From NCBI GenBank assembly GCA_964517135.1, contig CAZFBA010000008.1, positions 40,064-104,063 on the forward strand: 64,000 bases of DNA, given 5' to 3'. The notes under the pieces are model-generated. The model did not search any database, was not told where the DNA came from, and worked only from the letters and a program-made list of their open reading frames with translations. The translations under genes and the position numbers were made by a program. The DNA is from an uncultured Gammaproteobacteria bacterium. GTDB taxonomy: Bacteria; Cyanobacteriota; Vampirovibrionia; JBFMGH01. Below, one piece after another: positions 10,069 to 55,343 of this stretch; the stretch's first letter is position 1; each line of letters begins with the position of its first letter.

Positions 10069-10315
10069 TATTCTGCCCCTCTGGTTTTAAAATTACCGGC
10101 GGTAAAATTATAAACCAAAAATGTTCTTTATACACATTATGTTATCAACTATTTTTTTCTCTTAATGCTTTCATGGCAATTATTTAGCCTCACAGGGTTT
10201 CTGATGTTTACTTGGTTTGCTGTGTATTTAGGTAAACAAATGGAGATTTTTGCTTGTTATCTTGATATTATTCATGTTTTATTATTATTAAGATATAGTA
10301 ACATGGAAAATTCAA

Positions 10316-10789
10316 ATGAATAAATTCTCGAATATCTTTTGTCTTGTTATCATAACAGTTTTTTTTGTCTTTCAAAGTATTGTCTGTTCAGTTTGTTCGC
10401 AGGAAAAACAAAATGTACTGCCTGTAAAACCTATTGATGTTAAGGAATTGTCAGATGTCAATTGTTTTAAAGCATCTTTTGATGCTGATAGGCTTATAGT
10501 AGTTAACTTTTATTCCAGCTGGTGTAGAACATGCAGGCTGGTTGAACCTGTTTATGAAATTACTGCTGCTATATATTCTGATAAAATTAGCTTTTATGCT
10601 TTTGATGTCGATGAATACCCGGATTTAGGTAGCAATTTTGATATTGTTTATTTGCCAACTGTTTATGCTATAAATCCTACATGCAATGATATTAAAGAAA
10701 TACCGGTACGTTATATGCTTGATAGGCAGACATTGTCAAAGAAACTCGATGAGCTTATAGCTAAATTTGCTACTATATGCACTAAATAG
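10316..10789 (+). CDS. Secreted thioredoxin-fold protein (CRTC motif)
   Basis: 157 aa; N-terminal signal-like hydrophobic segment; VVNFYSSWCRTCRLVEP has the thioredoxin layout but W-C-R-T-C instead of WCGPC. Confidence 0.65.
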   Translation: MNKFSNIFCLVIITVFFVFQSIVCSVCSQEKQNVLPVKPIDVKELSDVNCFKASFDADRLIVVNFYSSWCRTCRLVEPVYEITAAIYSDKISFYAFDVDEYPDLGSNFDIVYLPTVYAINPTCNDIKEIPVRYMLDRQTLSKKLDELIAKFATICTK

Positions 10790-10878
10790 CTCTTAAATTA
10801 TTCTTTTCCGTTCTGTTGCTCAAGAATTGTGGTATGATTGATAGATATTCAGTTAGCTTATTTTTTGGGGAAACCATC

Positions 10879-11352
10879 ATGAAACCTATAAAAATCTTTA
10901 ATATAGTGTTGCTTCTGGCTTTTCTAGTGCTTTTAAATACGGCATGTTGTTGCTGTTCGGATAGTAGCTGGAAAAGTATTGACAGGCCCAGGCCATCGTC
11001 ATACAATACAGGGCCAACTTATGAGGATGCTATAAGTGCCAATAAGCCTGTTATAGTGTATTTCTATTCAGATTTTTGCGGTGCATGTACTACTACGGCT
11101 CCTATTTTTGCTGATATCAGGTCAGAATATCAGGATAAAGCCAGTTTTGTAATGCTTAACCCTGATACACACGGATACCTTTTTAGAGAATACAATGTTA
11201 ACAGCTATCCGACTGTTTATATAATTAATCCAGATTCTAAATACCGTGAAAAAATTCCTTATAGAGAAATTACAACGAATGACAGCTTTAAAGCTTATCT
11301 GGAAAAGAATCTTGAAGAATTCAGGCCACAAAAGAAAGTAATGTTATATTAG
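10879..11352 (+). CDS. Secreted/lipoprotein-like thioredoxin-fold protein (CGAC motif)
   Basis: Start placed at internal ATG (MKPIKIFNIVLLLAFLVLLNTACCCC...). VYFYSDFCGACTTTAPIF thioredoxin-like CxxC. Paralog of the preceding gene. Confidence 0.6.
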   Translation: MKPIKIFNIVLLLAFLVLLNTACCCCSDSSWKSIDRPRPSSYNTGPTYEDAISANKPVIVYFYSDFCGACTTTAPIFADIRSEYQDKASFVMLNPDTHGYLFREYNVNSYPTVYIINPDSKYREKIPYREITTNDSFKAYLEKNLEEFRPQKKVMLY

Positions 11353-12699
11353 TCTCCCTTTTAATGACCAGGGAGAAGCCTCTTCGACAAAGATTTTAAC
11401 AGTTTGACCTGTCAGTTCTTTCTCTCCTTTAAAGTGTGTGAGCTTATTGTTTCTTGTTCTTCCATTGAGAATAAAGCCATTTTCTTTTTTTGTATAACTT
11501 TCAACCAGTACTTCCTGTATTGTATTCTGGTATTTTAAGCTGGCTTTCAGTGCAGCTTCTTTAACATGGGAGTTTAATATGTTAATACGTTCTTTTTTAA
11601 TAGATACTGGTAACTGTTTATCTTTCCATGTAGCAGCAGGTGTTTGCTTTCTTGGGGAGTACATGGCTGTATTGCATTGGTCAAAGCCTAAATCGTTTAT
11701 TGCCTTTACTGTATCATAGAACTGTTCTTCGGTTTCACCAGGAAATGCTACTATAAAGTCTGATGTAATGGCAACATCGTTGATTTTGTTCTTGATCTTA
11801 TTGACCAGTGTATAGTATTCTTCAGAGGTATAGCCTCTTTTCATTTTTTTTAATATTTCTGTATTGCCGCTTTGCATTGGTATATGGAAGTATTCGCAGA
11901 CCTTATCAAGCTCTGCAACAGTATCTATAAGATCATCAGTTATATCTTTAGGGTGAGAGGTTACAAACCTGATACGATAGAGATTAGAGATCTTATTAAG
12001 CCTTTTTAGAAGTGCAGGAAGGTTGACATTGTTATCATTGATGTCGTTGCCATAAGAGTCTACTGTCTGTCCCAGTAGTGTAACCTCTTTATAACCTTGA
12101 TTTGCTAGTTTTTCAACTTCCTGAACGATTTCATCAAAAGGTCTGCTGCGTTGTCTGCCACGTACGTAGGGCACCACACAATAAGTACAGAAATAATCGC
12201 ATCCTTCGATGATGTTGACCCAGGCTGTTATGGTGTTATCTCTGACTGCTGTAAAATCTTTCCTGGTGCCCTGGTAAGGTGTTTTAAGTATTGAACACTG
12301 GCTCGTATGTTTGCTTTCTTGCTTCTTAATAAGTTCAGGTAGTTCATCTATGTTATGTGTACCAAAAATTATGTCTACATAAGGTGCTCTTTTAAGAATT
12401 TCTTCTTTTCTTTGCTGTGCAACACACCCACAAATGGCAATTTTGATATCAGGTTTAGTCTTTTTCATCTTTCCCCAGACTCCTAGATAGCTGAATGCTT
12501 TATCTTCTGCGCTGGCTCTTATTGTACAGGTGTTTATGATCAGTAAATCAGCTTCTTTGTGGTTAGATGTTTGATAATAATTTAGTGTTTCCAATATGCC
12601 AAGTATCTTTTCGCTGTCTGATTTGTTCATCTGGCAGCCCAGTGTTTCTATATAGACTTTTTTTCTGTTGTTTTTCATAGTTTTGCAGTGTTTAAACAT
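11344..12699 (-). CDS. miaB: tRNA methylthiotransferase MiaB (radical SAM)
   Basis: YIETLGCQMNKSDSE N-terminal MTTase domain, radical-SAM CDYFCTYCVVP, C-terminal TRAM-like region. True start probably the second Met at 12678 (MKNNRKKVYIETLGCQMN). Confidence 0.85.
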   Translation of the reverse strand: MFKHCKTMKNNRKKVYIETLGCQMNKSDSEKILGILETLNYYQTSNHKEADLLIINTCTIRASAEDKAFSYLGVWGKMKKTKPDIKIAICGCVAQQRKEEILKRAPYVDIIFGTHNIDELPELIKKQESKHTSQCSILKTPYQGTRKDFTAVRDNTITAWVNIIEGCDYFCTYCVVPYVRGRQRSRPFDEIVQEVEKLANQGYKEVTLLGQTVDSYGNDINDNNVNLPALLKRLNKISNLYRIRFVTSHPKDITDDLIDTVAELDKVCEYFHIPMQSGNTEILKKMKRGYTSEEYYTLVNKIKNKINDVAITSDFIVAFPGETEEQFYDTVKAINDLGFDQCNTAMYSPRKQTPAATWKDKQLPVSIKKERINILNSHVKEAALKASLKYQNTIQEVLVESYTKKENGFILNGRTRNNKLTHFKGEKELTGQTVKIFVEEASPWSLKGRLI

Positions 12700-13595: not shown

Positions 13596-14729
13596 TTATT
13601 TGCTATCAACGTTTTGCCATAATGCTATCCCGAACCAGACCAAATTTTGACCGTAATAGTCTTTGGGGTTACCCCAGAATCCTTTTATATAGTCTGCAGC
13701 CAGTTTTTGATGATATATTTTTTTTGCAACCTGTGGATTTATAATTGCTATAGCAGGTAATACAGCTCCGTAGATTGCGTAAGATTCTTCTCCTTTTCTT
13801 ATTACTCCGTCAACGGTAACACTTGTGGGCAGAGATCCGTTTATTTCCCAGTAGTCAATGAAGAATTTGGTTGATTTTTTCAGGTAGTCATAGGCTCTGG
13901 GATCTTTGTTTAGTATGTAATCAAGGGCTATACGCCAGTGTGTTCTTATTGCATCATAAGAATAGTCGCTTTCTTTCTTGTTGATGGTTTTGTCTATGGT
14001 TATTTCACCTGTGTTTTTATTTATGTAGCACCAGTCAGGCGGCAGGTAAAAGACAGAGAAGGATGATGCTTCTTTAATAACTTCGTATGAAGAGTCAACG
14101 AGAGAATTCCAGTCGTGATCTTTATCTATGGTAGCAAAAATCCTGTATGCATAAGGTGCAAAATATGATGGATTAAGTTTAACATTGACATCATGAACTG
14201 CCCAGTCTCCTGCTGTAAGGTAATTTTTACCTTTTATGTTAATAACTTCTTTATCCCACATATCTTTGAGAATTGCTCTGGCCTGTGTTTTGTAGCAATC
14301 ATTATTCCACTTTTTGCTTGCAAGTATAAGGGCAAGAGCAATGTCTTCTTCTGCATCTGTAGCGCTTGCTTTATCTATTATTGACCATTCTCCATTATTG
14401 TTTTGGCCCCATTTCCAGCCAAACAGGTTGTCGCCTCTTATCTTCAGGTTATTATTAGCCCAGTTTAAGGCTTTATCAAATATTTCTTTATCATTATGCC
14501 ATAATGCACGCAACATAGCATATGATTGACCTTCGGATGTAGTAATGTTATTTCCATAGAAGTCTATTACCCTTCCATCATCCTGTATGAAAAAGCTTTT
14601 ATAGGTTTTCCATGATTGTTTGAGCTGCTCATTACTGCTTAGTTCTGAGCATATGCCGTTTCTCATTGATAAGAAGATTAATCCGGTTGTTATTATTCCT
14701 GCTAATAGGTATATATATAGCTTATTCAT
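13596..14729 (-). CDS. Glycoside hydrolase family 8 (endoglucanase-like)
   Basis: 377 aa with signal peptide. TSEGQSYAM and ASATDAEEDIALALILASKKW match the GH8 signature A-[ST]-D-[AG]-D-x2-[IM]-A-x-[SA]-[LIVM]-[LIVMG]-x-A-x3-[FW] except Glu in place of the second Asp. Confidence 0.8.
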   Translation of the reverse strand: MNKLYIYLLAGIITTGLIFLSMRNGICSELSSNEQLKQSWKTYKSFFIQDDGRVIDFYGNNITTSEGQSYAMLRALWHNDKEIFDKALNWANNNLKIRGDNLFGWKWGQNNNGEWSIIDKASATDAEEDIALALILASKKWNNDCYKTQARAILKDMWDKEVINIKGKNYLTAGDWAVHDVNVKLNPSYFAPYAYRIFATIDKDHDWNSLVDSSYEVIKEASSFSVFYLPPDWCYINKNTGEITIDKTINKKESDYSYDAIRTHWRIALDYILNKDPRAYDYLKKSTKFFIDYWEINGSLPTSVTVDGVIRKGEESYAIYGAVLPAIAIINPQVAKKIYHQKLAADYIKGFWGNPKDYYGQNLVWFGIALWQNVDSK

Positions 14730-33166: not shown

Positions 33167-34891
33167 CTATTTCAATGACTCTGCCCATGCCAGCATAAAC
33201 ACCAGCGGGGCATTATAGTCAATAGCATATTCATTGGTGGCATAAGATTTTTTGTTATCAATATAGCTTTTTATTTTCAGTCCAGGTATTGCGACATTAT
33301 CATTTGCTGTATCGTTAGGGCCTCCAACCATAAAGCCAGGTAGTGTTTCTCCTGTTGCCATCATATAGCGATGATGTATATTTTGAGGTGGGTTGTCACC
33401 CAGGCCTGTTACAAAAGACTTATTAAGCGGGTTGCACCCAAATACATAGTTGATTGTTTTTAAACCATAATCTTTGTAAATGACTTTGCCTGTTAGTTTA
33501 TAGGCATATGCTAGTGTGATACCTTCGCTTAAAATCGTAGCGTTTGAAGCCCACCTGAATTTATCCATGGGTATAAAATAAGGGTTAGAGCTCATTTGGG
33601 CAACAATATTGCTGGCATTTTTTATTATTAGTTGTTTCATTGATTCTTTAAGCTGTAAATCTTTACAGTCGCTGGTTGCTATTTCAATAATGCCCATAAT
33701 AGCCGTGTTTTTCCAGGAAAAATGATCATAATCGACCCGGTCAACATTATTTTTAAAGTAATTGAGATAGGCAGGATCTTTTGTGGCCAGATATAATTCG
33801 GCTGAAGCCCAGACAAGTTCGTCCTGATCGCTGTAGGCAAAGCGTTCAGTGTCATAGTTAGGATCAGGATATCCACCGGAACCGCTGTTATCAGAAGACT
33901 GATAATCAGTATTGTTTGGGAATGTTATCATGTGATTCCAGGCTTTTATGGCTGCATTTAGATATTTGTCAGAGCTTTCAGTATTGTAGTTTCTGAATAT
34001 TCTTGATGCTTTTGCCATGGTGGCAGCGAATTTACCTGTTTCCTGGCTAGATATGCCATATATATACCGTTTTTGAGTGTCATCCTGTGCGAGTGTGGTA
34101 TCAGAAGGCCAGTTTTCTCCTGAACATTTTCTGTATACTGCGCCGTCTTCCCTTTGCAATTTTAGCATCCAGTCAAGTGCATAGCGGGTTTCTTCCAGTA
34201 TATCAGGCAAGTCAGAGTCATTATCCTTATAATACATATGTATTTGTTTTGTCTCAGTATTTATTTCGCTGGTTGCCATTAGCAGTGCAGCTGCTATTGT
34301 AGTAGAAGCTATATATTTCCCGTAGTCACCAGCATCATGCCAGCCACCCGTAGCATCTATCTTTGTTTCAGCTGTATTATAGCTGTCTGTTCTTTTTATG
34401 TAACCGTCATTTCTGTGGCATGGTGGATGTAGTAAAGTGTTATTTTTGTATTTGACTTCTCTTCCACAATTCTGAAGGTAAAAAGTTGATGTAGTAAGCT
34501 TTAGTGCTGTATTATAGATCCTGTATTCTATTCTGAAATCAAAGGATCTGTTGTTTTTATACTTTATAAAATAGTCACCAGGTGTCTTAAGGCTATCAAA
34601 TGTAATTTTACTTACTTTATTACCTGTGAATTTGTCAATTATTGGTTGATGAATTTCAGCATTCATAATGACTTTATTGGTTTTAGATTCTATTATCTCT
34701 GCAATGCCGGCATTACCAGGATTCTCAATCAGAGCATATTTTTCAGTTGAAGGATAATACCCGATCTGGTTTACGTATATCTCCTGTGCTATTGTGTTAT
34801 TTAATACGCATGAAACCCATAAGCCGGCTGTTAAGAAGGCAGTTATGAATATTATGAAGTTCTTTGAGCGTTTCTGTAACATATTGGTCAA
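33167..34891 (-). CDS. Glycoside hydrolase family 9 endoglucanase with N-terminal Ig-like domain
   Basis: 574 aa with signal peptide. IDATGGWHDAGDYGKY GH9 signature, N-terminal Ig-like domain (YVNQIGYYPSTEKYALI), C-terminal catalytic-region motifs. Confidence 0.85.
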   Translation of the reverse strand: MTNMLQKRSKNFIIFITAFLTAGLWVSCVLNNTIAQEIYVNQIGYYPSTEKYALIENPGNAGIAEIIESKTNKVIMNAEIHQPIIDKFTGNKVSKITFDSLKTPGDYFIKYKNNRSFDFRIEYRIYNTALKLTTSTFYLQNCGREVKYKNNTLLHPPCHRNDGYIKRTDSYNTAETKIDATGGWHDAGDYGKYIASTTIAAALLMATSEINTETKQIHMYYKDNDSDLPDILEETRYALDWMLKLQREDGAVYRKCSGENWPSDTTLAQDDTQKRYIYGISSQETGKFAATMAKASRIFRNYNTESSDKYLNAAIKAWNHMITFPNNTDYQSSDNSGSGGYPDPNYDTERFAYSDQDELVWASAELYLATKDPAYLNYFKNNVDRVDYDHFSWKNTAIMGIIEIATSDCKDLQLKESMKQLIIKNASNIVAQMSSNPYFIPMDKFRWASNATILSEGITLAYAYKLTGKVIYKDYGLKTINYVFGCNPLNKSFVTGLGDNPPQNIHHRYMMATGETLPGFMVGGPNDTANDNVAIPGLKIKSYIDNKKSYATNEYAIDYNAPLVFMLAWAESLK

Positions 34892-35356: not shown

Positions 35357-36484
35357 ATGAGTTTAGTTATTGGTTTACTGGGTAATAAAAATAATTCTGA
35401 TACTTCTCTGAAATGGCAGGGTATAGAAGATGGATTGGCTGTTCTGGGCCATAAGTGTTATTATCTCGATGCATTTGAAACGACAGAAGAGATCAATAAT
35501 GCACGTATAAACATGCTTTTTACTATTAATAAACAGGGTATGGATAAGTGGAAACACCTTTTAGAATTACCTATCCCTTTTGTTATGTGGTCAACAGGGT
35601 TTTCAGTTGACTGTATTGAGCTTATTCAGTCTTATAGAAGCAGGATAAATTTTGTTGTTCTCTCAGATTCAGGTGATTTTCTGAATTATATTCGTTATCG
35701 GTTTCCTGAAATTAAGCAAAGTGTCTTTTATGATGTTTTTGAAACCTTTTATAGTAAGGATAAAGAAGAGAATAAAGTTTATGACGTTTCTTACATAGGA
35801 GATATATCTGATATACGATCCATAAAAAATGAATTGAAACAAAATCTCAGCAATGAAGCATATCAAATTATGCATGATATAGTTACATTGATGCTGAGAA
35901 ATTCTGAAATGACTTTATGGGAAGCTTATCGTTATTATTCTTTAATCTATGGTTATGATAATAGAGATCATGAGCTCTTTATAGATTTATATACCAAGCT
36001 GTCAGGCTATATTACAGATATGAAAAAGATTAACATCCTCTCTAAACTAAAAGGGCAGAGGGTTCATATCTGGGGTGATCCTCTCTGGAAGAAGTATCTG
36101 CCATCCGAGCTGAAATATATGGGTGATATTTCTTCTGATCAGAAAGATGAGATTATTAGAAAGTCTAAAATAGTTCTAAACATCGATGATAGTGAATATG
36201 TACATTCTTTAAATCCTTATGTTTTAAAGATTATGTCTAATAAGACTCTACCTCTTACGACTTATAACATACACATGCAGAGAGAATTTCCTCAAAAAGA
36301 TTATGATATTTACTATAGCCTGATGAATAATGATCATTTAAAGTTAAAAATGAATGATTATCTTGATAATCCGGAAAAAATTCTAACTATGACTGAAGAA
36401 ATCTATGATCATGTTAGCCTGAAGTTTACCTGGCAGGAGAGAATGAAAAAGTTTGAGACAATGTTTGTTGCGGGGTCTAAATGA
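35357..36484 (+). CDS. CgeB-like (Glyco_trans_1_2-type) putative glycosyltransferase, paralog 1
   Basis: 375 aa; C-terminal region (RKSKIVLNIDD...HVSLKFTWQERMKKF) resembles CgeB-family GT C-terminal domains. Clear paralogy with the next gene (GDPLWKKY vs GSPLWKEH; RKSKIVLN vs RKSKIVLH). ATGA overlap with next gene. Confidence 0.5.
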   Translation: MSLVIGLLGNKNNSDTSLKWQGIEDGLAVLGHKCYYLDAFETTEEINNARINMLFTINKQGMDKWKHLLELPIPFVMWSTGFSVDCIELIQSYRSRINFVVLSDSGDFLNYIRYRFPEIKQSVFYDVFETFYSKDKEENKVYDVSYIGDISDIRSIKNELKQNLSNEAYQIMHDIVTLMLRNSEMTLWEAYRYYSLIYGYDNRDHELFIDLYTKLSGYITDMKKINILSKLKGQRVHIWGDPLWKKYLPSELKYMGDISSDQKDEIIRKSKIVLNIDDSEYVHSLNPYVLKIMSNKTLPLTTYNIHMQREFPQKDYDIYYSLMNNDHLKLKMNDYLDNPEKILTMTEEIYDHVSLKFTWQERMKKFETMFVAGSK

Positions 36485-37602
36485 AAGAATTATCAATAGG
36501 TGTATATGGCTCAGACAGCTATCAGGGTGGCGTATACAATATGCTGGCAAGCTTTGGTGTAGGCTTTTATAATGCTTTGAAGAAGACTGATATTACTGTC
36601 AAATATATGAAAGACTATTTTGAATCAGGAGAAATGCCTAATCTAACAGTGGCGTTCAATGTTTCAGGAGTTGAAAGCTGGCACAATACCCTGGATAAAG
36701 GTGTCCCACATATGATGTGGTCTGTTGATTCTCCTTTCTGGCATATGCCTACTATACAGAAGTTTTACAACTACAAACACTTTATTTTTACCGGTGTGTC
36801 TCCGGTTGATAAAGAGCCAGCAGAGTTTTTCTTTCCGGGGCTTGAATATTTGTATATACCTCATGCTTCTGACCCTGAGCAGTGGTATCCTGATGAAACT
36901 GAAAAAGAGTATGACCTTGTTTTTATGTCATCTTTACGTGATTTTAAAGAAGACATAGATGAATTAAAAACCTCTTTGCCTCCTTCTATGTTTGATATGT
37001 TTATGGATATGTATTATTACGCCATGAGAAACCCTGAATCTTCTTTCTGGGAAATATATAGTTTATATTCTGATCTCTATGGCTATAATTTGCACGAGTT
37101 ATCACTTTTCTATGTTTTCTTTATGAAGATTTGTTATGCTGTTACCTATCAAAGACGTATTGATATGGTTAAAAAGCTTAATAATTACAACCTTAAAATA
37201 TGGGGATCTCCTTTATGGAAGGAGCATATAGAAGGAAAAGTTGAGTATATGGGTACTGCTGACTTCTTTGATGCAAATGATATAGTTCGTAAGTCCAAAA
37301 TCGTTCTTCATATACAGCCAATGCAAATTCTTTATGGACTACATGAAAGAGTTCTAAATGCAATGAATTCTGAAGCGTATGTTATATCTGATAACAATGC
37401 ACAAATGGAAGTTACTTTCCCTGATATGATTAGTTATTTTAATAGTTATAGTTTTGAAAATCTTGAAGAGTCTATTGAATACTGTTTAAAAAATGAAGAA
37501 GTGCGTCAGGCAAAGGCAGAAACCGCACGGCAGGCAATCCTGGCCCAGCATACCTGGGATGCCAGAGCTAGCAGTTTTCTAACCCTTCTCAAAGGGAACT
37601 AA
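36481..37602 (+). CDS. CgeB-like (Glyco_trans_1_2-type) putative glycosyltransferase, paralog 2
   Basis: 373 aa; C-terminal RKSKIVLHIQP...AILAQHTWDARASSFLTLL resembles the CgeB-like domain ending (HTW..R). Paralog of the preceding gene. Confidence 0.5.
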   Translation: MKELSIGVYGSDSYQGGVYNMLASFGVGFYNALKKTDITVKYMKDYFESGEMPNLTVAFNVSGVESWHNTLDKGVPHMMWSVDSPFWHMPTIQKFYNYKHFIFTGVSPVDKEPAEFFFPGLEYLYIPHASDPEQWYPDETEKEYDLVFMSSLRDFKEDIDELKTSLPPSMFDMFMDMYYYAMRNPESSFWEIYSLYSDLYGYNLHELSLFYVFFMKICYAVTYQRRIDMVKKLNNYNLKIWGSPLWKEHIEGKVEYMGTADFFDANDIVRKSKIVLHIQPMQILYGLHERVLNAMNSEAYVISDNNAQMEVTFPDMISYFNSYSFENLEESIEYCLKNEEVRQAKAETARQAILAQHTWDARASSFLTLLKGN

Positions 37603-42536: not shown

Positions 42537-42756
42537 CCGAACTCCCTGCTTTGCCTGCTTTGAGGCTTATGACTGTTTAATTTTAGTTTCTTCTTTATTT
42601 TATCTTCAAGTAAGCAAGAAAAAAAGTTGAGCTTCAAATGGAGTATTTGACATGATTTTTCCATGTTATACATGTATAAACTTTTTAAATATGCTTTTAA
42701 TAAAGGATTCGTTTGTTGTGTTTTAAATAAACAAAGTTAAAGGGGTACCGGGTAGG

Positions 42757-42772
42757 CCTGAATGCATTCAGG
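42757..42772. repeat. Perfect 16-bp palindrome CCTGAATGCATTCAGG in a GC-rich island of the divergent intergenic region
   Basis: Read directly from the sequence; KpnI-like GGTACC lies just upstream. Possible operator; not statistically compelling alone. Confidence 0.3.
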
Positions 42773-42999
42773 TGTGCTGATACATGGATTATTGTAACGC
42801 TTTTTGTCTTTGTATTACTCTTATATTCGCTCTTTTAGTTTTTTATTTCTGGTTATGAATAGCTATTTTTGATGAATTTTGGTTTAAACTTATAAAAAGA
42901 AAGAGCATAAGTGGTTTTTGACTGAAATCCTTTATAAGAATGCATTTTGATGCTTTTGATATAATAAACCAAGTATTATTAACCATAGAGGGGAATTAT

Positions 43000-45762: not shown

Positions 45763-46809
45763 ATGTTAATTGTAATGAACCACAACGCAACCGAACAGCA
45801 AATAGAAAGAGTTCTTACACTTGTAAATCAGTTTGGTTTTGATATACACAGGTCTTCAGGTAAGACTAATACGGTTATTGGCGTTGTTGGTGAGAATACA
45901 CATAAGGTTGATCATCGTGTCTTCGAGCTCCTTGATGGAGTCAGGGAGGTTATAAAAATATCGTCACCCTATAAACTGGCCTCAAGAGCATTTAAAGAAG
46001 AAGACACAATTGTAAAAGTAAGTCAGAACACATCTATTGGTTCTTCAGAAATAATAATTATGGCTGGTCCCTGTGCTGTTGAGTCGAAAGAATGCCTTCA
46101 ATCCACAGCAGACTGTGTTAAGGTGGCTGGTGCAAAGGTACTAAGAGGCGGGGCCTTTAAACCACGTACTTCACCCTATGCCTTTCAGGGCCTGGGAGAA
46201 GAAGGTCTTCAATATCTCAGAGAAACTGCTGATAAACTGGGTATGGCTGTTGTGTCTGAGGTTATGGAAATCAGTCAGATTGAATTGTTCCTTAAATATG
46301 TTGATATTATTCAAGTCGGAGCAAGAAATATGCAGAACTTTAACCTCTTAAAAGAACTGGGACAGGTTAAAAAGCCGGTTATGCTCAAAAGAGGTCTCTC
46401 TGCGACCATAAAAGAGCTTTTGATGTCTGCGGAATACATCCTGTCGGGCGGCAATAATGATGTTATACTCTGTGAGAGAGGTATCAGAACCTTTGAAAAT
46501 TCAACACGAAATACGCTTGATATATCAGCAATACCGGTCATTAAATCCTGGAGTCACCTGCCTATAGTAGTAGATCCCAGCCATGCTACAGGTCTGAGAG
46601 ATAAAGTAGCACCGATGGCCAGAGCTGCTATTGCAGCGGGTGCTGATGGGCTAATTATAGAAGTGCACTGTGATCCTGATATGGCACGCTGTGACGGCGC
46701 TCAGTCACTTTATCCACAGCAGTTTAAACAGCTGATGAGAGAACTTAGTATCATTTCGCCTGCGGTTGGCCGGGAAATTAACACAAATGTAGTCGAAAAG
46801 GCTTTTTGA
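45763..46809 (+). CDS. aroF: 3-deoxy-7-phosphoheptulonate (DAHP) synthase, AroF/KDOPS-like class with N-terminal regulatory domain
   Basis: 348 aa; N-terminal ACT/ferredoxin-like domain, then TIM-barrel catalytic core (IMAGPCAVES..., KVLRGGAFKPRTSPY, DIIQVGARNMQNF, KRG). ATG with AGAGG upstream. Confidence 0.85.
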   Translation: MLIVMNHNATEQQIERVLTLVNQFGFDIHRSSGKTNTVIGVVGENTHKVDHRVFELLDGVREVIKISSPYKLASRAFKEEDTIVKVSQNTSIGSSEIIIMAGPCAVESKECLQSTADCVKVAGAKVLRGGAFKPRTSPYAFQGLGEEGLQYLRETADKLGMAVVSEVMEISQIELFLKYVDIIQVGARNMQNFNLLKELGQVKKPVMLKRGLSATIKELLMSAEYILSGGNNDVILCERGIRTFENSTRNTLDISAIPVIKSWSHLPIVVDPSHATGLRDKVAPMARAAIAAGADGLIIEVHCDPDMARCDGAQSLYPQQFKQLMRELSIISPAVGREINTNVVEKAF

Positions 46810-46977
46810 TTTAAGATAAGGCTTTGAACAACGCTTCCTGGGGTATTATTTCTCCGGAAGAGTGTTATCTAATTTGAAAAATGAAAATAAAAAACTTGAT
46901 ATCAGCTTTAAGCACTAACTTCTACTAGAACATGACTGTTGATAGCAACTGGTATGATAGTTATTTATCCGTTTTGA

Positions 46978-49230
46978 TTAATAGAAATTGACGACTTTTT
47001 TAGCTTCTTCAGCGCCTTCTGTGCTGCCTGTGCTGAACAGGTTCAGGTATTGATCTAAGCTGCCGCTTTCTTTCCAGCTGAAGTTTTCCTGCATAGCGTT
47101 GTAAGCAATTTTATTGAAGCTTTCAGGCTTATTATAGAACATTCTGATGGCATCTTTAAGTGATTGATTATAGCTTCTGGCTGATTTTTGGAGGTTTTGT
47201 TTGGATGCGGCTTTGTCTCCAGGCACTTCAGGAACGTATTCTTTTGACAGGAAGCCTGTTTTACCATCAACAATAGTATTTGATAACCCTCCAGTTGGTG
47301 TTGCGACAGGTATGTTACCTTTTGCCATGGCCTGTAGTTGCCCCAGACCGCAGGGTTCAAATTTACTGGGCATAATGAACATATCGCCAGCAGCCTGAAT
47401 CATATGCATTAGGTCTACGCTGAAGGCGTTCATAAATACGACACGCTTTGATAATTCGGGCGGTAATTGTTTTTTAAGGGCATTTAATTTGTTTTCATCT
47501 CCACCATTACCGAGAATAACAACTACTGGTAGTGGTTTAGTTTTGTCTACTGGCCTTGTTAAGACATTTCTAATAGCAGCAGCTGTCAGGTCAATGCCTT
47601 TTTGGCCTTCAAGACGGCTAACCATGGTTAATAAAGGTGTCTTTTCAATTTCACTTTCTTTTAAAAATTCAAGTTTGCTGCCGTCTGTAGATTTAACACC
47701 CAGGTATTTTTCATCTTCAAAGGCTCCCTGTTGAAGCAGTTTGATGAAAGCCTTTTTGTTGTGTGTTTTTGCTTCAATAAAGTCTTCTAAAGATGTTTGC
47801 CTGCTGTATAATTTAAATTCAGGAAGGTCTGTTTTGCCGCTCTGCTCTTTGTATGCGGCTAGCTTGCCATAAACTTTCTTTGCCAGTCCTCCGTCAGGGG
47901 CGATACCGCCCTGTCCGATACCATTGACAATACCAGTGAGGTTGCCTGCTTTGTGTCTGCTATCAAGCACACTGACAAAGTCATAGCCGAAGAATTTGTC
48001 TGTGGCTATTTCTCTGGCATAGTTTGGAGAAACAGCTATTACTGCATCAGCAAGTGCCAGGCCGTGAATAGCAGCATTGTAAGTGTCTCTTACCATAACA
48101 GATTTTGGTGAAGGGTATTTCTGGAGGTTCTTTTTGCCGCCTTCTACGATTGATTCAGTCATATTGGGCATATAGGAGTTTGTGAATACACTGTCTGCAT
48201 AGTCTTCATATAGCATATTGAGTATCTTTGAAGTGTTTTTATTATCCCAGCCCTGATATTCAAGGTTATGAACAGTGTAAACAATGGGCAATTCTTTCAG
48301 TTCATTAGCAATATTCTGGCTTATACCGTCTTTATTGGCAGCTTTAGCGGGCATTAAGACTTTTAATTGAGCTGCCAGCGGACCGGCATGCCAGTCATTT
48401 GCATCGATGACATTTGGTGCATCTTCAGGATTCGTTTCTTTAAGTTCTTTAATATAATATGCAGTGGCTTTTGAGAGGAATGCAAATCGTTCAGACTCTT
48501 CTACGCCTGATTTATTTTTTATGTATGGTGTTACTTTTTTCCCATCATTGGGAAGCCCACCGAAAAATTCTTCATTTTGCAGGAACCTGTACTCTGTTCC
48601 GTTTAGTTCACCCTTTAAGACTCTAACTGTTGTAGATTTACCATCACCTATCGGGACGTTTACTGCAACACCTGTATCAACCAGGTTGATTGATCCACCC
48701 ATAGGCTTGCTGGTATAAGTATATGTACCATTTTTGTTGTCAGTTAATTTAACAAGATCGCCGCTTTCATAAAGTGGCTGTACGATGGTCATTTTAGCAC
48801 CCTGACTGTTAAATTCTTTGTTGAAGGCTTCAGGTAGGTCTACAGCAACGTCACCAAGGCCGCCAGTTTTCATGAATGTTTTTGTTTCAGAAGTTACCAT
48901 CCATACGTTAGGCGTTGAAACATTCCAGGAGGGCTTTGATGTTATTTGTGATGATGCAATACCCCTTACTTCAGGCACCATTTCCTGTGGGATTCTCTTT
49001 GATGAGTTGAGTTCTAATTTATAATTCGGATAAGTCTTTACTTTGCCGTCGTTTTGGGGTTTTGCGCCAAAAGAAATAAAGTTCAAGTATCCTAAAAAGT
49101 TTAAATCACCGGCTGATTTCTGCTGAATGGTTTCTTGTACTGGTTTATGGGCATTTTGAAATGGGTTTGCTTTGAAGGCTGGGCCTGTGGTGACCTTCTT
49201 TGCCGGGAAGATAGTGTTATTGATATCCAT
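46978..49230 (-). CDS. glgA: Glycogen/starch synthase-like GT5 glycosyltransferase, unusually long (750 aa)
   Basis: KTGGLGDV motif (FMKTGGLGDVAVDLPEAF) and C-terminal MPSKFEPCGLGQLQAMAKGNIPVATPTGGL (cf. SRFEPCGL..Q..A...G..PV...TGGL). About 110-aa N-terminal extension, internal insertions and a long C-terminal tail. Confidence 0.7.
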   Translation of the reverse strand: MDINNTIFPAKKVTTGPAFKANPFQNAHKPVQETIQQKSAGDLNFLGYLNFISFGAKPQNDGKVKTYPNYKLELNSSKRIPQEMVPEVRGIASSQITSKPSWNVSTPNVWMVTSETKTFMKTGGLGDVAVDLPEAFNKEFNSQGAKMTIVQPLYESGDLVKLTDNKNGTYTYTSKPMGGSINLVDTGVAVNVPIGDGKSTTVRVLKGELNGTEYRFLQNEEFFGGLPNDGKKVTPYIKNKSGVEESERFAFLSKATAYYIKELKETNPEDAPNVIDANDWHAGPLAAQLKVLMPAKAANKDGISQNIANELKELPIVYTVHNLEYQGWDNKNTSKILNMLYEDYADSVFTNSYMPNMTESIVEGGKKNLQKYPSPKSVMVRDTYNAAIHGLALADAVIAVSPNYAREIATDKFFGYDFVSVLDSRHKAGNLTGIVNGIGQGGIAPDGGLAKKVYGKLAAYKEQSGKTDLPEFKLYSRQTSLEDFIEAKTHNKKAFIKLLQQGAFEDEKYLGVKSTDGSKLEFLKESEIEKTPLLTMVSRLEGQKGIDLTAAAIRNVLTRPVDKTKPLPVVVILGNGGDENKLNALKKQLPPELSKRVVFMNAFSVDLMHMIQAAGDMFIMPSKFEPCGLGQLQAMAKGNIPVATPTGGLSNTIVDGKTGFLSKEYVPEVPGDKAASKQNLQKSARSYNQSLKDAIRMFYNKPESFNKIAYNAMQENFSWKESGSLDQYLNLFSTGSTEGAEEAKKVVNFY

Positions 49231-49537
49231 TGCCTTACTCCGTATTGTGAAGATAATTTGTTTTTTTGACCTCTAATGGGGGATACTTTTTTAAGGGTTG
49301 TAAATATGTCATTGTGCTAAATTCCCTCCAATGAGTTACATTTTGTTACACCCTGGAGCAGTTCTTTTTGAAGGCTTTTGTGAAGTAATACATACGTATT
49401 GATAACCATTTGCCTTAATACCACAAAATTATCATTTGATAGAACTTTTATATGTTAATATTTTTGCCTTATTGCCAAAACTGAGATAGAGTTTTAATGA
49501 TCCTGTAAAGAGTTTGAGGGGTGAAAACAGTCTGATT

Positions 49538-51646
49538 ATGAGTGAATTGACCATAGAACAATTACTTGATGAGTATTTAAATAACCGGCTTGATAATGTT
49601 ACTGTTGAAGAGGTCTCGAAACATCTTGATGACCCGGATCCTTTGAAAAGAAGAGTTGCCCTGGAGTTGTTGTATAATCTGACCGGTGATGCCAATTACT
49701 TAATGAAGATTATGCCATTGTTACAGAATGATGTTGCGGCCTTGTGGGATTTCTTGAATGATTATTGCTCATCACTCAATGATAGATTTGTTGTTTCAGT
49801 GCTTATTATGGAGGCCTTAAAGTATATTGACCCGGTTAAAGAGCATGAAAAAGCAGGAAGCATACTTTTTAACTGGCGTCAATTAAACCCGCCTTCTTTA
49901 TTTTTGCCGGATGATGTTGAAGATGCGTCGAAAATTAAAGACCTTGAAGTTGTTTCTCTGCCTGTTATAGCGAATGTTCTTGCTAACTGGATAGCTCTGG
50001 GTGTCAAGCAGTTACCATTTTCAGAATTTCATTATTTCCCGTACTTTTTGGCCAATCATTCAGGTATCAAACTAACGATACCAGAACAGTATTTGAATGC
50101 AATCAGCGAACTGCCGGATAAATTCAGGTCTCATTATGACCTGGGTGTTATGGCAGTCATTCATTCAGACCTCAAAACTGCTAATAAGCATTTTATTGAA
50201 GCAGCCAGAGAAATCCTCTCACGGGATGACCCGGCAAATGCCTTCAATATAGTGGCTAAGTGGCATACCTTTGCCGGACCGTTTCTTAATAAACACCCTG
50301 ATCTACTGGCAGACCTTGAAGATATACTCTGGAAAGTTATTCATGAAGTCTATATAAGAGAATCTGAATCACTTCAGGTCTTTGTAATGTCTATCTTTCT
50401 CTATTGTGATATAGCCTCAAAGCTTATAGGATACAGCCTGTTTAACTATCAACACATACTGGAACTCTCTGAACTCTTTGAAAAGAAAATTTTATTCTTT
50501 AAAATGATCAAGCATATTGAATTTAAACATGAAATTAAACCTAAAGACAACCTTAATATCGGTTTTATTGCATTTAGTCTAAATGAAGGCCCTGCAGGAT
50601 CTATTGTTAACAACTTTATAAGACATCATGATAAATATAAATTCAAGATATTTTTCTATGATTGTGGCTTTGCTCCTCAGATAACAGCTCTTAACCTGAA
50701 TGAAATGCAAAAACATGCTACTGTCAGGCTGCTTGAATATCAAAACCATGATGAAAAGATACTGGATGCAGTAAATTTTGCTTCTCAAATTCACGAAGAT
50801 CAAATAGATATACTGATTTATCTGGACTGGCTGGTGAACCCTGTAGGTCATGCAATTTGTTGCCTGAAACCAGCTCCACTGAATGTCAAGATAGATCTTG
50901 TGGGAATAACTTCTGGCCTATCAAAAATACCTTATATGATTGATTATCTGGGGATTGCAAAAGATAGTAACCTGCCCTTTACTGAAGAATTAATAGAAAT
51001 GCCCCTTACTTTTCCTATGCCAGAAGAAATAGAGAGCTTTGATGGTATAAGTTCTGCTATACTGGGCAATAAAACACTTATGTATTCCTTTGTGGCCCCT
51101 GAGAACCTTGAAACTGAAGACTTTAAAGAAGCTATTGTTAAGATACTTGCCAGAAATCAAGATGCTCACTTTAGTTTTTCATCCAGATGTGATGTCAGGC
51201 CAGTATTATCATATTTTGATGTTGCCGGAGTTGCTGATAGAGTGACCTATCTGGGTACTGATAGTTCGAGGAAGACTGTCTGTGAAAATATCAGGTTATG
51301 TGACATTTACCTAAATCCTTATCCTCTGTCAGGGCGTTCAGATGTATATTATGCAATGACCAGGGGTAAGCCTGTTGTTGCGCTGTCTGGTACTAAAGAT
51401 GATTTACTGGCAAAAAGAATTGGGGCTAAAATTTTAAATGAGCCTGATATTATTGCTCAAAATTATGATGAATATGTTGAAAAAGCTTCCAGATTGATTC
51501 AGTCGCCTGATCTTCGATCTGAAACAGGTAACAGGCTTGCTGAAAGGGCCAGTAACGAATTTAATTCTGATAATGTTGTTAAAAAGCATGAAGAGCTATA
51601 CAGAGAGCTTTATAACCGGCTTGTTTCTGAAAAATCTTCAGTATAA
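49538..51646 (+). CDS. Putative glycosyltransferase with OGT/SPINDLY-like (GT41-like) C-terminal domain and helical N-terminal domain
   Basis: ATG at 49538 (track ORF starts at TTG 49514, overlapping a GAGGGG SD). C-terminal half (NIGFIAFSLNEGPAGS...KFKIFFYD...LKPAPLNVKIDLVGITSG...DIYLNPYPLSGRSDVYYAMTRGKPVVAL) resembles GT41 O-GlcNAc-transferase catalytic domains. By-eye alignment only. Confidence 0.45.
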   Translation: MSELTIEQLLDEYLNNRLDNVTVEEVSKHLDDPDPLKRRVALELLYNLTGDANYLMKIMPLLQNDVAALWDFLNDYCSSLNDRFVVSVLIMEALKYIDPVKEHEKAGSILFNWRQLNPPSLFLPDDVEDASKIKDLEVVSLPVIANVLANWIALGVKQLPFSEFHYFPYFLANHSGIKLTIPEQYLNAISELPDKFRSHYDLGVMAVIHSDLKTANKHFIEAAREILSRDDPANAFNIVAKWHTFAGPFLNKHPDLLADLEDILWKVIHEVYIRESESLQVFVMSIFLYCDIASKLIGYSLFNYQHILELSELFEKKILFFKMIKHIEFKHEIKPKDNLNIGFIAFSLNEGPAGSIVNNFIRHHDKYKFKIFFYDCGFAPQITALNLNEMQKHATVRLLEYQNHDEKILDAVNFASQIHEDQIDILIYLDWLVNPVGHAICCLKPAPLNVKIDLVGITSGLSKIPYMIDYLGIAKDSNLPFTEELIEMPLTFPMPEEIESFDGISSAILGNKTLMYSFVAPENLETEDFKEAIVKILARNQDAHFSFSSRCDVRPVLSYFDVAGVADRVTYLGTDSSRKTVCENIRLCDIYLNPYPLSGRSDVYYAMTRGKPVVALSGTKDDLLAKRIGAKILNEPDIIAQNYDEYVEKASRLIQSPDLRSETGNRLAERASNEFNSDNVVKKHEELYRELYNRLVSEKSSV

Positions 51647-51652
51647 GATGAA

Positions 51653-53872
51653 TTAGACTCTTTTAACGGATATAGCCTTTTCTGTGGGTTCTATTTCCTG
51701 TAGAACCTGTGCTTTTGCTATTGCTACTACGAAATGTATCTCTTCATTTTTATTAACATTTAGTTCTTTAAAGGGTATTGCAAGTTCTATTACGGAGCTT
51801 GCTGCTACTTTTGTGTTTGTTTGGGGATGTATTTTCCAAAGATTGTTTTCAGTTGCTTCTGACAGGGTTGTTTCTATGTGGTTATCCTTTGGGGATATGT
51901 ATATTTCGTAGGCATATTTATATTTAAGTGTTTCAACAAAATTCTCAGACAGCGTCCTGATTCTTACAGGGCTGTTATCTCTTGCTTTGCCCGGGTTGTA
52001 TGCATATATATAGGTGTCATATTCTTTATTTGAGATAGAGTGGGTAGTATCAATTCTTATGTTAAGATGATCTCTATCGAAGCCAAACCATATTCGTCTT
52101 AGCAGGCGGTCACTTTGATACATTGCTCCTGACTTGAACTCTATTACACCGGCTTCTCTCCATTCGTCCTGAGTGTCTGCTTCTCCGTTGATGCTGGGTG
52201 TAAACCATGCAGAAGGGTATTTAAGTGATCTACCAAGGTATACCTCTACCGGTACAAATAATTTTGTTGGTATAGGTTCATTTAAGACACGATAGACATT
52301 CTGAAGGTGTAGCCTGAACTGTTCGTCAAAGAGGTCATCCTGCGCAGAGAAGTTAGGGTCACCGTACCACCAGAACCAGTCAGAGCCTTCAGCTATATAG
52401 AGCTCTTCCCAGGCTTTTTCAATGGTTTCAGTGTCGTAATCATTTTCTTCTATCAGCCTGATAAGGTCATCCCGGGTGTTTTTCAGGTATTGCCAGCCAG
52501 TGTTTTTAGCGGGATCACCTATCCAGATGTGAAAATCTCTATTTATCCAGGAGCCAGAATGGATGTTTTGAAGGGTTCTGGCTGGCGGATTTTTTTCAAG
52601 GTATTCACTGACAGTACAGACATCAATAGATGTATCTTCACTAAGTCGAGTATAGAGGTTTTTCAGGAATGGTATACCGTCAAGATCATAGTATTCCCAG
52701 CAGTTTTCACCATCCAGCGCAATGGTAACAAGGTGGTTGTCGGTTGAGTGAGAGAGTTTATCCTGTACATCTTTTATGCGGTCATAGAGTTCCCAGGCGG
52801 CTTGTTTGGGATCCATTTTGCCCAGTTGAAAGCCGATTAGGTCTGAGTAGACCACGTTTCTAAAAATCATGTCTACGGTTTTACCGTCGATGTTGATTTT
52901 ATAGGGCTGGCATAGCTCTTTAGGTTTTTCAAGATTGCCATAGAAGTTTCTATGAAAGTCTTTTCCCAGTGATGCAGATAGAACTCCTTCATCGGAGATA
53001 GCCCACTGTATTCCTTCATCAGCCATTAACTTAATGGTTTCAGGGCTGACAGACTGTTCGGATGGCCACATGCCTTTTGGATGTCTGCCGAATAGTTCTT
53101 TATACTTTTTAACAGCTCTTTTTACATGTATTTTTGCATCTTCAGGGTGTTGAAAAGGTTTTTCTGGTAGCTGCATTTCGGGCCGGGCAATTTGTGCTGC
53201 ATTTGTATCAATCAACAACGGCAGTATCGGGTGATAGTAAGGACTAATGGTGACTTCTATCTGTCCTTTTTCTTGATAAGCTTTATAGGCTGGTATTATT
53301 TCGCTGATGATTTTTCGTTGAATTTGTAAAAGTTGTTTTCTTTGCTCTAGTGAAAAGTTTTTTTCTTGCTTTACAAAGCTTTTTAGTTCTGGTATCTCGC
53401 TAATCCAGCGTGGGTCAAACCAGACAAGATTAAACCACATTATAATATCTGCATATTCCTGGCTGGAAAAGTTATCTATATTTGATCCGGCGCTGAGTGT
53501 CTTGTTTCGCTGGTAAAGGCTGTGGTAATATGCATTTTTGGCAATCATGTTTTGATAATTAGCATCGAAAAAACGTTCCAGAATGAAGATTTTATCATCG
53601 TTGGTGAACTCTTCTTCTGGTTTAATCATTAGTATTGAATGTTGATCATGGGCTTCGTTATAAGCATAGTCGTTAAGTTGATCTACTAAAGAAGGTACTA
53701 TATTAAACGTTTGCCTTATTTCAGGGTAATCTTCAAGAATTAATACCATATCAAGGTAGTCTTTGATGGCATGCAGACGTACCCATGGCATGAAATACTT
53801 TCCTGTTAGGTGATCTTTATAGAGTGGTTGATGCATATGCCATACAAAAGCGACGGATAACTTTTTGGCCAT
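51653..53872 (-). CDS. Glycoside hydrolase family 57 (alpha-glucan-active; branching enzyme / glucanotransferase-like)
   Basis: 739 aa; N-terminal FVWHMHQPLYKD signature of GH57 (HQHQP-type), catalytic-region acidic residues, long C-terminal helical/beta extension. Confidence 0.75.
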   Translation of the reverse strand: MAKKLSVAFVWHMHQPLYKDHLTGKYFMPWVRLHAIKDYLDMVLILEDYPEIRQTFNIVPSLVDQLNDYAYNEAHDQHSILMIKPEEEFTNDDKIFILERFFDANYQNMIAKNAYYHSLYQRNKTLSAGSNIDNFSSQEYADIIMWFNLVWFDPRWISEIPELKSFVKQEKNFSLEQRKQLLQIQRKIISEIIPAYKAYQEKGQIEVTISPYYHPILPLLIDTNAAQIARPEMQLPEKPFQHPEDAKIHVKRAVKKYKELFGRHPKGMWPSEQSVSPETIKLMADEGIQWAISDEGVLSASLGKDFHRNFYGNLEKPKELCQPYKINIDGKTVDMIFRNVVYSDLIGFQLGKMDPKQAAWELYDRIKDVQDKLSHSTDNHLVTIALDGENCWEYYDLDGIPFLKNLYTRLSEDTSIDVCTVSEYLEKNPPARTLQNIHSGSWINRDFHIWIGDPAKNTGWQYLKNTRDDLIRLIEENDYDTETIEKAWEELYIAEGSDWFWWYGDPNFSAQDDLFDEQFRLHLQNVYRVLNEPIPTKLFVPVEVYLGRSLKYPSAWFTPSINGEADTQDEWREAGVIEFKSGAMYQSDRLLRRIWFGFDRDHLNIRIDTTHSISNKEYDTYIYAYNPGKARDNSPVRIRTLSENFVETLKYKYAYEIYISPKDNHIETTLSEATENNLWKIHPQTNTKVAASSVIELAIPFKELNVNKNEEIHFVVAIAKAQVLQEIEPTEKAISVKRV

Positions 53873-54215
53873 TGCTGATTCCTTTTATAGTGGTGAAATA
53901 TCTGATAGTTGAAGAAATAAATTCTACATCCTAATAGTGATTATAAATTAATTTTAAGTTTATTTAAAACAGTTCATATTTCACTGGTGTGATGGGTTAA
54001 TGTGCTCAAGCCTAAAAAGGCGTTATAGCAGGTGTTTTACGGTTATTCTGTATATACAGAAAAATGGCCAAAAAAAATACCCTTTACCCAGGGTAGGAGA
54101 AGCATTAACATCATCTAACAGGCGTATTTGAAACATTAAGTGGGTTTAGGTTGGCAAGCAAAGCTCAACCTGTTTTATCTTAGGTTTGATTATTGTTAAA
54201 TTTAATCAGTTAAGA

Positions 54216-54545
54216 TTAAGCGAAGGTTTTGAATGACATATCGATGTTCTTATCGATAACTTTCTGGACAGCTTGAATTTCAGTTTGTACAGCTTGTTGT
54301 TGTGTGTCAACTCTTCTTAACTGCATTTCGAGTCTTTTGTCGATTTGTTGAATCGCTTCAACACGTTTTTGTTCTTGTTGCATTTTGGGGTCATCCGGTG
54401 TCATGTTGGCTTGACCTTCCATCATTTTGCTCATCTGGTTGGCCAGTGCCATCCTTGCCTGGTTAATGGATTGACCCTGCATTTCAAGATCGCTCTTCCG
54501 AGCTGTTAACATTAAGAATCGTGCTTGACTTGCTGCTAAACCCAT
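54216..54545 (-). CDS. Small coiled-coil hypothetical protein (109 aa), strong SD
   Basis: GGAGGAAA SD 8 nt upstream of ATG on the minus strand; Q/M-rich heptad-like sequence (MGLAASQARFLMLTARKSDLEMQGQSINQARMALANQ...). Isolated by 340-bp and 800-bp non-coding spacers. Confidence 0.55.
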   Translation of the reverse strand: MGLAASQARFLMLTARKSDLEMQGQSINQARMALANQMSKMMEGQANMTPDDPKMQQEQKRVEAIQQIDKRLEMQLRRVDTQQQAVQTEIQAVQKVIDKNIDMSFKTFA

Positions 54546-55343
54546 TTAAAATTTCCTCCGTAAAACTCTCTTTCTTTACCTTTTTAAAAGTCCTCTCTCT
54601 TTGATAATGAATAAATTTCCTTCCAACATTTTTGCTTGAAATTAAAATCACCTTGCGGTGTAATATTTATTCTTTTATCACCTCACTTTTCCTCAAAATA
54701 AATTCCGCAAAGAACATAATAATTCCTATAGTTATAAAAACAAATCTTGATTTCGAATTGCCCGAACCCTTGCAGCAGAGCTATTTTCATGATTTCATCA
54801 GTGTATATTTCGTATTTATAAGGTATTGACTTAATATTTATTATATATATATTAAGATGGTTTTCGGGGATGGTTTTTGTTACATTCTTCATACTTAATA
54901 TTTTGTTACTTTATATAAACAAACAATACTTCTTTCCTGCTAGAACCTTTTAATGCAAGGATTTAGACGATTGCCTTTTCTCTGATATCTATTCAAAAAA
55001 AATCTGGTTATATTTAAAAATCAATGTTGGAGCTATTTTATGCCTGATTTGAGGTTTATCAGGCTTTCAATAAAGTTTATATAATATAAAGAAATGTATC
55101 GCCAGTTAAAGATGACAGGTTTTTGGTTTTGCTGCCCTGGCTTTAAGTGAGTGTTATAAACTACTATGACGAAAGAATACCTGCCAGTATGCTTCATTAA
55201 ACAGTTTTTATTAATTGTAATTGTTTTACTTCGTTCAATATCCATGAATTATTCAGTATTGCTTTTGATTTATATTATGTTTGAGATATCCTCTCAGGAA
55301 GAAGTCAAAAAGTCTTATAAAGAAAACAATACAGATATACCGG

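Follow-up and report, generated by a model that had tools for sequence, protein, structure and literature searches.

An orphan GT41-fold protein with a degenerate donor site lies between GT5 and GH57 alpha-glucan genes of a Vampirovibrionia lineage

We analysed a stretch of 64,000 nucleotides (hereafter the window; contig CAZFBA010000008.1, positions 40,064 to 104,063, of assembly GCA_964517135.1), in which a gene for a GT41-like protein stands between genes for a long GT5 glycogen/starch-synthase-like protein and a GH57 enzyme. The explanation that we favour, with somewhat better than even confidence, is a lineage-specific GH57-GT5 alpha-glucan pair that an orphan gene interrupts. The product of this gene has the GT41 fold, probably lacks catalysis and serves in binding or as a scaffold, and its link to glucan metabolism would be no more than putative. 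A preliminary description of the locus had suggested a non-canonical glucan pathway with glycosylation of a protein or primer. That suggestion was not borne out, since the middle protein has lost its donor-binding and catalytic residues, the genes alternate in strand, and the middle gene is dispensable at the locus.

The layout of the locus agreed with that description. Open reading frames (ORFs) were present at 46978..49230 (minus strand), 49514..51646 (plus) and 51653..53872 (minus), and their assignment to GT5, GT41-like and GH57 families by Pfam held. The GT41-like and GT5 genes are divergently oriented and the GT41-like and GH57 genes convergently, with only 6 bp between the two stop codons of the latter pair (51647..51652). 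Because the strands alternate, the three genes are separate transcription units, and an operon is impossible. The divergent intergenic region (49231..49537) presumably holds both promoters. It contains promoter-like matches, their count being not above shuffled controls; promoter and terminator scans of 46700-54700 likewise gave counts not above the controls, and no regulatory conclusion was drawn from them.

Fold and donor site of the GT41-like protein

The reading frame of the GT41-like gene opens with a TTG codon at 49514, which would give 710 amino acids. The first residue of all homologues corresponds to the ninth codon, a start that was also chosen in one public gene call. The gene therefore probably begins at the ATG at 49538 (49538..51646) and encodes 702 amino acids, which refines the previous figure of 700. 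The Pfam GT41 profile matched the protein at 30.5 bits (gathering cutoff 25), with partial coverage: the match spans residues 335-511 only, corresponding to profile positions 68-239 of 543. In precomputed annotation of the homologues this match is faint or absent. The fold comprises a helical repeat domain ahead of a GT-B domain, and its nearest structural neighbours belong to GT41. The N-terminal domain (residues 1-325; 49538..50512), which is TPR/AAD-like, consists solely of helices by DSSP, and a Pfam scan of it gave no match and detected no TPR repeats. The GT-B domain (residues 338-701; 50549..51640) carries a donor site that residue alignment showed to be degenerate.

Four relatives with 38-51% identity were found by a word-indexed search. 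Two further full-length members and two fragments came from an exhaustive HMMER scan of 1.84 billion cluster representatives, and one more member was located in the related locus L046, bringing the family to about eight full-length members. They are known to date only from a narrow clade that also has the long GT5. The gene is intact in every genome examined, at 35-52% identity, and for this reason is judged to encode a functional protein under purifying selection.

Other candidate relatives were considered. In L047, the long GT5 faces a convergent 759-aa gene without a Pfam match; this gene was rejected as a distant relative on an hhalign probability of 0.5%, and is regarded as unrelated. Giant proteins of 1,000-3,800 amino acids topped the HMMER list; their scores sum 2-10 matched stretches each, and they are unlikely to be closer relatives. 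The one example inspected, P0155, is a tandem of two canonical SPINDLY-type modules whose motifs are intact. Separately, three proteins of 540-600 amino acids (P0184, P0207 and P0215), each with a helical N-terminal domain and a GT-B domain, scored 125-143 bits against the GT41-like profile; canonical OGT-type proteins scored 38-66 bits with a single-sequence query, well under these values. The His of the 'GHSPT' motif is kept in P0184 and P0207, and the GGG loop in all three. The C-lobes of P0184 and P0207 were labelled as GT4-type by Pfam, and the three proteins may bridge GT41 and GT4.

The state of the donor site was determined by aligning the eight family members with 6-15 canonical cyanobacterial SPINDLY-type proteins. 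Positions are given in human OGT numbering (chain index of 5hgv plus 312), which reproduces K842, Q839, H558, T560 and H920-T922. The canonical proteins keep the donor-site residues in the same alignments. In the GT41-like family, the His/Thr loop of the sugar site (H558, T560) is lost, the equivalent of H558 being Gly or Ser in all eight members. The equivalent of Q839 is not conserved, that of K842 reads N/T/E/S/K/N/D/K across the members (Lys in two of eight), and that of H901 reads V/L/N/V/R/L/F/N. The N-G-x-T-T loop, which includes H920, T921 and T922, is replaced by SGRSD, SSQAE, SGGIN, SSVAE, PTPED, SNISE, SHAQG and SIGSE, and D925 by Tyr in six of the eight. The K898 column, inspected by eye in one alignment, holds Arg in four of five members. 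R568 is the sole conserved basic position in the C-lobe of the family, and as canonical GT41 proteins have it too, it is no obvious substitute for K842. Structural motifs of the fold, namely IDIL, LKPAP, DIYL(N/D) and P(V/I)V, are kept. In human OGT, the K842M and Q839A substitutions nearly abolish activity, D925A and K898A leave none detectable, and T560A reduces it (PMC2556091).

The distribution of sequence conservation pointed the same way. Mean pairwise identity within the GT41-like family is 42-43% in the helical domain, 42-44% in the GT-B N-lobe, 33-35% in the C-lobe on the donor side, and 29-30% in the C-terminal helices. The corresponding values for canonical SPINDLY-type proteins are 33, 56, 64 and 55%. 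The donor lobe is thus the most conserved part of canonical GT41 proteins, whereas in the GT41-like family the profile is inverted, with a donor lobe that, by these values, evolves faster than the helical domain and the N-lobe.

Comparison with characterized proteins led to a similar placement. The architecture of a helical domain followed by a GT-B domain is that of the bacterial OGT homologues XcOGT (2jlb) and TtOGT (5djs) and of plant SPINDLY (8dtf). Unlike these, the GT41-like protein is without the His loop, the Q839/K842 pair, H901, the NGxTT phosphate loop and D925, and it has no detectable Pfam TPR repeats. To the HMW1C-like N-glycosyltransferases of GT41 (AaNGT, 8p0o) it is 12% identical, the donor-binding Lys is not conserved, and no adhesin or two-partner-secretion genes lie near its gene. 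The earlier label "OGT-like" therefore stands for the GT41 fold and fails for the donor residues. We file the protein as a GT41-fold variant and not as an OGT, its structure being OGT/NGT-like and the tested defining catalytic features having failed. Since the canonical GT41 donor-binding and catalytic residues are lost, the protein is probably not a nucleotide-sugar transferase, and glycosylation of a protein or primer by it is unlikely.

Gene context among relatives

The neighbourhood of the locus is conserved throughout the clade. One flank consists of an MJ1278-like gene, a HEAT-repeat gene and a DAHP synthase gene, and the other of a 109-aa ORF and TrmFO, then KdtA and SucCD where contigs reach. 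Between these flanks the gene content varies, and we distinguish three versions. The order GT5(-) GT41-like(+) GH57(-) (version A) occurs in four related genomes (the window, L001/L002, L003 and L046), and is therefore not unique to the genome of the window. In two others (version B; L004 and L055), the GT41-like gene comes immediately after the DAHP synthase gene, and no GT5 gene adjoins it. In a further two (version C; L049 and L057), the GH57 and GT5 genes are co-directional and adjacent, separated by 205 bp and 158 bp, respectively, without a GT41-like gene between them. This last version agrees with the earlier view of the GT41-like gene as inserted between the other two, and it demonstrates that the gene is dispensable at this locus. 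In addition, the GT41-like gene in L056 is convergent with a GH57 gene whose product is 53% identical over the C-terminus, and L047 carries a more distant long GT5 in an unrelated context. No remnants of the GT41-like gene were detected by tblastn in L049, L057, L047, L045 or L050.

In a neighbour-joining tree of the GH57 proteins, the version C genomes are interleaved with those of versions A and B, although this rough tree has a star-like shape and carries no support values. This suggests that the GT41-like gene may have been lost or relocated rather than gained once. The L004 locus belongs to the metagenome-assembled genome MAG292 (GCA_040752795.1), whose long GT5 lies on a separate contig, L045. 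There (L045:233-2757 and 10001-12133) the long GT5 is at the contig end, with Mu-transposase and TniB-like genes about 7 kb upstream and toxin-antitoxin genes in between, which points to a rearrangement at the locus in MAG292. Considered as a whole, the co-conservation of the trio is inseparable from the synteny of the entire neighbourhood within one narrow clade.

The flanks showed some further variation. An ORF of 1,580-1,760 amino acids with faint Pfam matches lies just upstream of the MJ1278-like gene in four relatives (L001:1-3576, L003:1-2957, L004:657-5648 and L046:16239-21512), next to a GAF histidine kinase gene in the two loci where such a gene can be seen (L004 and L046). At this place the window has a gap of only 400 bp (42537-42939). 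On the other flank, no family match was obtained for the 109-aa ORF that lies upstream of the GH57 gene in the window (54216-54545, minus strand), and an ORF of the same length occurs at the equivalent position in L001, L002 and L046. Between it and the GH57 gene lie a terminator-like hairpin (54095-54078) and a promoter-like site (53968-53940).

The long GT5 synthase, the GH57 enzyme and the rest of the window

The long GT5 gene (46978..49230, minus strand) encodes 750 amino acids, with Pfam matches to GT5 (residues 108-415) and Glycos_transf_1 (524-668). Its catalytic motifs are kept: KTGGLGDV (121-128), HNLEYQG (321-327), RLEGQKG (539-545), FEPCGL (624-629) and TGGL (646-649). The AlphaFold2 model of the protein (mean predicted local distance difference test score, pLDDT, 83) resembled CLg1 granule-bound starch synthase (GBSS), E. 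coli glycogen synthase (GS) and Arabidopsis SS4 in Foldseek searches, with target TM-scores (template modelling scores) of 0.75-0.81. Like E. coli GS (2qzs) and CLg1 GBSS (6gnf), the protein has the KTGGL, HNLxYQG, RLxxQKG, FEPCGL and TGGL motifs and the glycogen synthase fold. It differs from GlgA and from plant or cyanobacterial starch synthases in being about 270 residues longer, and in pairwise local alignments is only 22-27% identical to canonical GlgA and GT5 structures, with about 27% to canonical GlgA. The NCBIfam glgA model TIGR02095 gave 246 bits, below its cutoff of 328, and every GlgA equivalog model was far under its cutoff. The long-GT5 family comprises 13 sequences, of 705-776 amino acids except for one member of 1046 amino acids with an N-terminal SDR domain. 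By these features, the GT5 of the window belongs to a divergent, insertion-rich subfamily, keeps its catalytic motifs and most likely elongates alpha-1,4-glucan from a nucleotide-glucose. The 1046-aa homologue (P0033, L050:8001-11141) is 50% identical, has a NAD-dependent epimerase/SDR domain from residue 17 to about 330, and adjoins two radical-SAM genes; it could be either a fusion or a gene-call artefact.

The surplus length of the GT5 is made up of an N-terminal extension of about 107 residues and several internal insertions. The extension (residues 1-107; 48910..49230), which precedes the KTGGL motif at residues 121-125, has no counterpart in alignments with canonical GlgA. Residues 1-60 had pLDDT below 50 and are predicted to be disordered, residues 61-105 are ordered, and no signal-peptide-like hydrophobic stretch was found in the extension. 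It carries a semi-conserved signature, LNxLG..SFG / KPxW, common to the long-GT5 family. The preliminary description had noted an N-terminal extension and also a long C-terminal tail. The former was substantiated. The latter was not, because GlgA models align up to residues 732-738 of 750, that is, 12-18 residues short of the C-terminus.

The GH57 gene (51653..53872, minus strand) encodes 739 amino acids, comprising an amylopullulanase-like catalytic domain (residues 1-524) and about 215 C-terminal residues. Pfam GH57 matched at 219 bits, and the best PDB match was the Aquifex aeolicus amylopullulanase AaApu (8zyi/9jlq), with 260 bits over residues 3-524. In the AaApu study, Glu256 and Asp352 were given as the catalytic dyad, and five regions were defined as conserved (PMC12106739). 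By the motif definitions of that study, all five regions are present in the window enzyme: HMHQP (12-16), GQIEV (203-207), WPSEQS (269-274), DGENCW (387-392) and AEGSDW (494-499). The catalytic pair is likewise present, as Glu272 and Asp387. The window enzyme differs from AaApu in its additional C-terminal residues and in insertions. An architecture of about 740 residues is widespread, with at least 7,999 homologues at E<1e-50, and is common in Vampirovibrionia and other bacteria.

In Melainabacteria, the putative branching enzyme is reportedly a GlgB of the Thermus/Thermococcus type (bioRxiv 10.1101/2021.06.18.448987). The window GH57 scored only 40 bits against the NCBIfam branching-enzyme equivalog NF041133 (cutoff 1000) and 20.5 bits against NF041566 (cutoff 920). 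Because these scores are far under the cutoffs, the GH57 is not, as judged by these models, of the Thermus/Thermococcus GlgB type. Of the earlier view, which cited GT5 and GH57 as a known pairing for synthesis and branching, what stood was that both are genuine members of their families with motifs kept; the branching part does not follow, as the GH57 is AaApu-like.

The window is otherwise ordinary chromosome, with rimP-nusA-infB-truB, ruvB, sucCD, kdtA, trmFO, a DAHP synthase gene, histidine kinase genes and GH8/GH9 genes. No tRNA genes or Rfam matches were found in the window, and none of glgB, glgC, glgP and malQ was found among the ORFs scanned within it. The closest homologues carry the source labels "Cyanobacteriota bacterium", "Vampirovibrionia bacterium" and "Candidatus Melainabacteria", and on the strength of these labels the host is assigned to the relatives of cyanobacteria without photosynthesis. 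Two pentapeptide-repeat proteins (1109-1984 and 3902-4501, both minus), typical of cyanobacterial lineages, are also encoded. Elsewhere, two tandem paralogous Glyco_trans_1_2 (PF13524) genes (35357-36484 and 36481-37602, both plus), overlap by 4 bp. A GH9 cellulase-like gene (33167-34891, minus) is found about 0.5 kb away from them, and a GH8 gene (13596-14729, minus) about 20 kb upstream. Together they may form a beta-glucan or cellulose-related set.

Possible roles of the GT41-like protein

From its lost donor residues and fast-evolving donor lobe, we infer that the GT41-like protein most likely has no catalytic activity and acts in binding or as a scaffold. It probably has no obligatory role in glucan synthesis. 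On this explanation, the conserved core of the locus is the GH57-GT5 pair, adjacent and co-directional in some relatives, in which the AaApu-like GH57 enzyme would act on alpha-glucan and the divergent GT5 would extend alpha-1,4-glucan. In the window lineage, the orphan GT41-like gene sits between the pair on the opposite strand as its own transcription unit. Its product retains the bacterial OGT architecture, in which a helical repeat domain packs against a GT-B domain. With the contacts to the sugar and to the diphosphate of the nucleotide-sugar lost, it would have a binding or scaffold role instead of glycosylating a protein or primer.

Several observations weigh against this explanation. 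The gene is intact and clearly constrained, and so far known only from the clade with the long GT5. The residue mapping rests on alignments of about 20% identity and on a predicted model. The family has invariants of its own, FYDC (373-376), DWLxN (430-434), C441 and Y604/M607 of a YYAM motif, which sit in the region of the GT41 cleft and could form a different, novel active site. On the side of the partner enzyme, branching activity may hide in some GH57 'amylases' (PMC11046441), and sequence cannot tell a GH57 hydrolase from a transferase, so that the window enzyme is best described as an AaApu-like enzyme putatively acting on alpha-glucan. Finally, the GT41-like gene is tail-to-tail with the GH57 gene in all six genomes in which its downstream side is visible, with gaps of 3-94 bp in L001, L003, L004, L046 and L056, often of only 3-19 bp.

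This last arrangement would favour a more specific proposal, in which the protein, as a dead enzyme, binds GH57 or the long GT5 in the manner of a scaffold or regulator, for example by holding the disordered N-extension with its TPR-like domain, and thereby tunes glucan synthesis or turnover. Analogies are offered by the non-catalytic GT-B partner GtfB and the inactive plant starch-synthase-like protein SS5. A degenerate donor site beside a conserved helical domain and N-lobe would be expected of such a partner, and its confinement to the clade with the long GT5, whose disordered extension bears a conserved short motif, would fit as well. However, the genomes share the entire neighbourhood, from the MJ1278-like gene to TrmFO (KdtA/SucCD where contigs reach) in one clade, and the adjacency to GH57 is therefore not independent evidence of a functional link. 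The GT5 extension is equally present where the locus is without a GT41-like gene (L049, L057 and L047). We regard this proposal as unlikely, though not negligible. Its narrower form, in which a catalytically dead 'pseudo-OGT' would be an adaptor dedicated to the neighbouring alpha-glucan enzymes, capturing the GT5 extension or regulating GH57, appears to us quite doubtful.

The variable gene content raises another explanation, that the GT41-like gene is an unrelated passenger which arrived in or left the intergenic slot by chance and works outside glucan metabolism. Its presence or absence varies among close relatives, the GH57 tree interleaves genomes with and without it, the GT5 has moved beside Mu-transposase/TniB genes in MAG292, and the neighbours are functionally mixed (DAHP synthase, HEAT-repeat protein, TrmFO and KdtA). 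But the gene, when present, always adjoins the GH57 gene, and the window shows no transposase, repeat or tRNA as the mark of an insertion. On balance we consider a passenger rather unlikely. The original idea of an active OGT-like transferase that glycosylates a protein or glucan primer could draw on the GT41 fold, the Pfam match above threshold, the constraint on the protein, and a place between two glucan genes that is kept in four genomes. It is contradicted by the lost or variable donor-contacting residues, including the Lys whose mutation kills human OGT, by the relaxed donor lobe, by the opposite strand, which leaves no operon, and by the missing gene between GH57 and GT5 in two relatives. 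Bacterial GT5 synthases are, moreover, generally regarded as independent of a protein primer, which also counts against it. An active transferase is accordingly the least credible of these explanations, and we hold it to be very improbable.

The GT5 and GH57 are recognizable members of known families, and no new pathway is required to account for them. Our literature search, which was incomplete in coverage and therefore gives weak evidence, found neither a described GT41 pseudo-enzyme nor a GT41 gene linked to glycogen loci. The locus is also a caution against reading a Pfam "GT41" label beside glucan genes as a sign of protein O-glycosylation. The long GT5, with its 13 known sequences, and the amylopullulanase-like GH57 indicate how one Vampirovibrionia lineage may organise its glycogen metabolism. 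If the favoured explanation of a non-catalytic GT41-fold protein holds, the family would be a small branch of the GT41 fold, hitherto undescribed, that remains under selection after giving up the binding of nucleotide-sugars, and thus a candidate bacterial pseudo-glycosyltransferase. Were the adaptor role also true, the protein would be for bacteria what the scaffold proteins and non-catalytic starch-synthase-like proteins governing glucan initiation are for plants.

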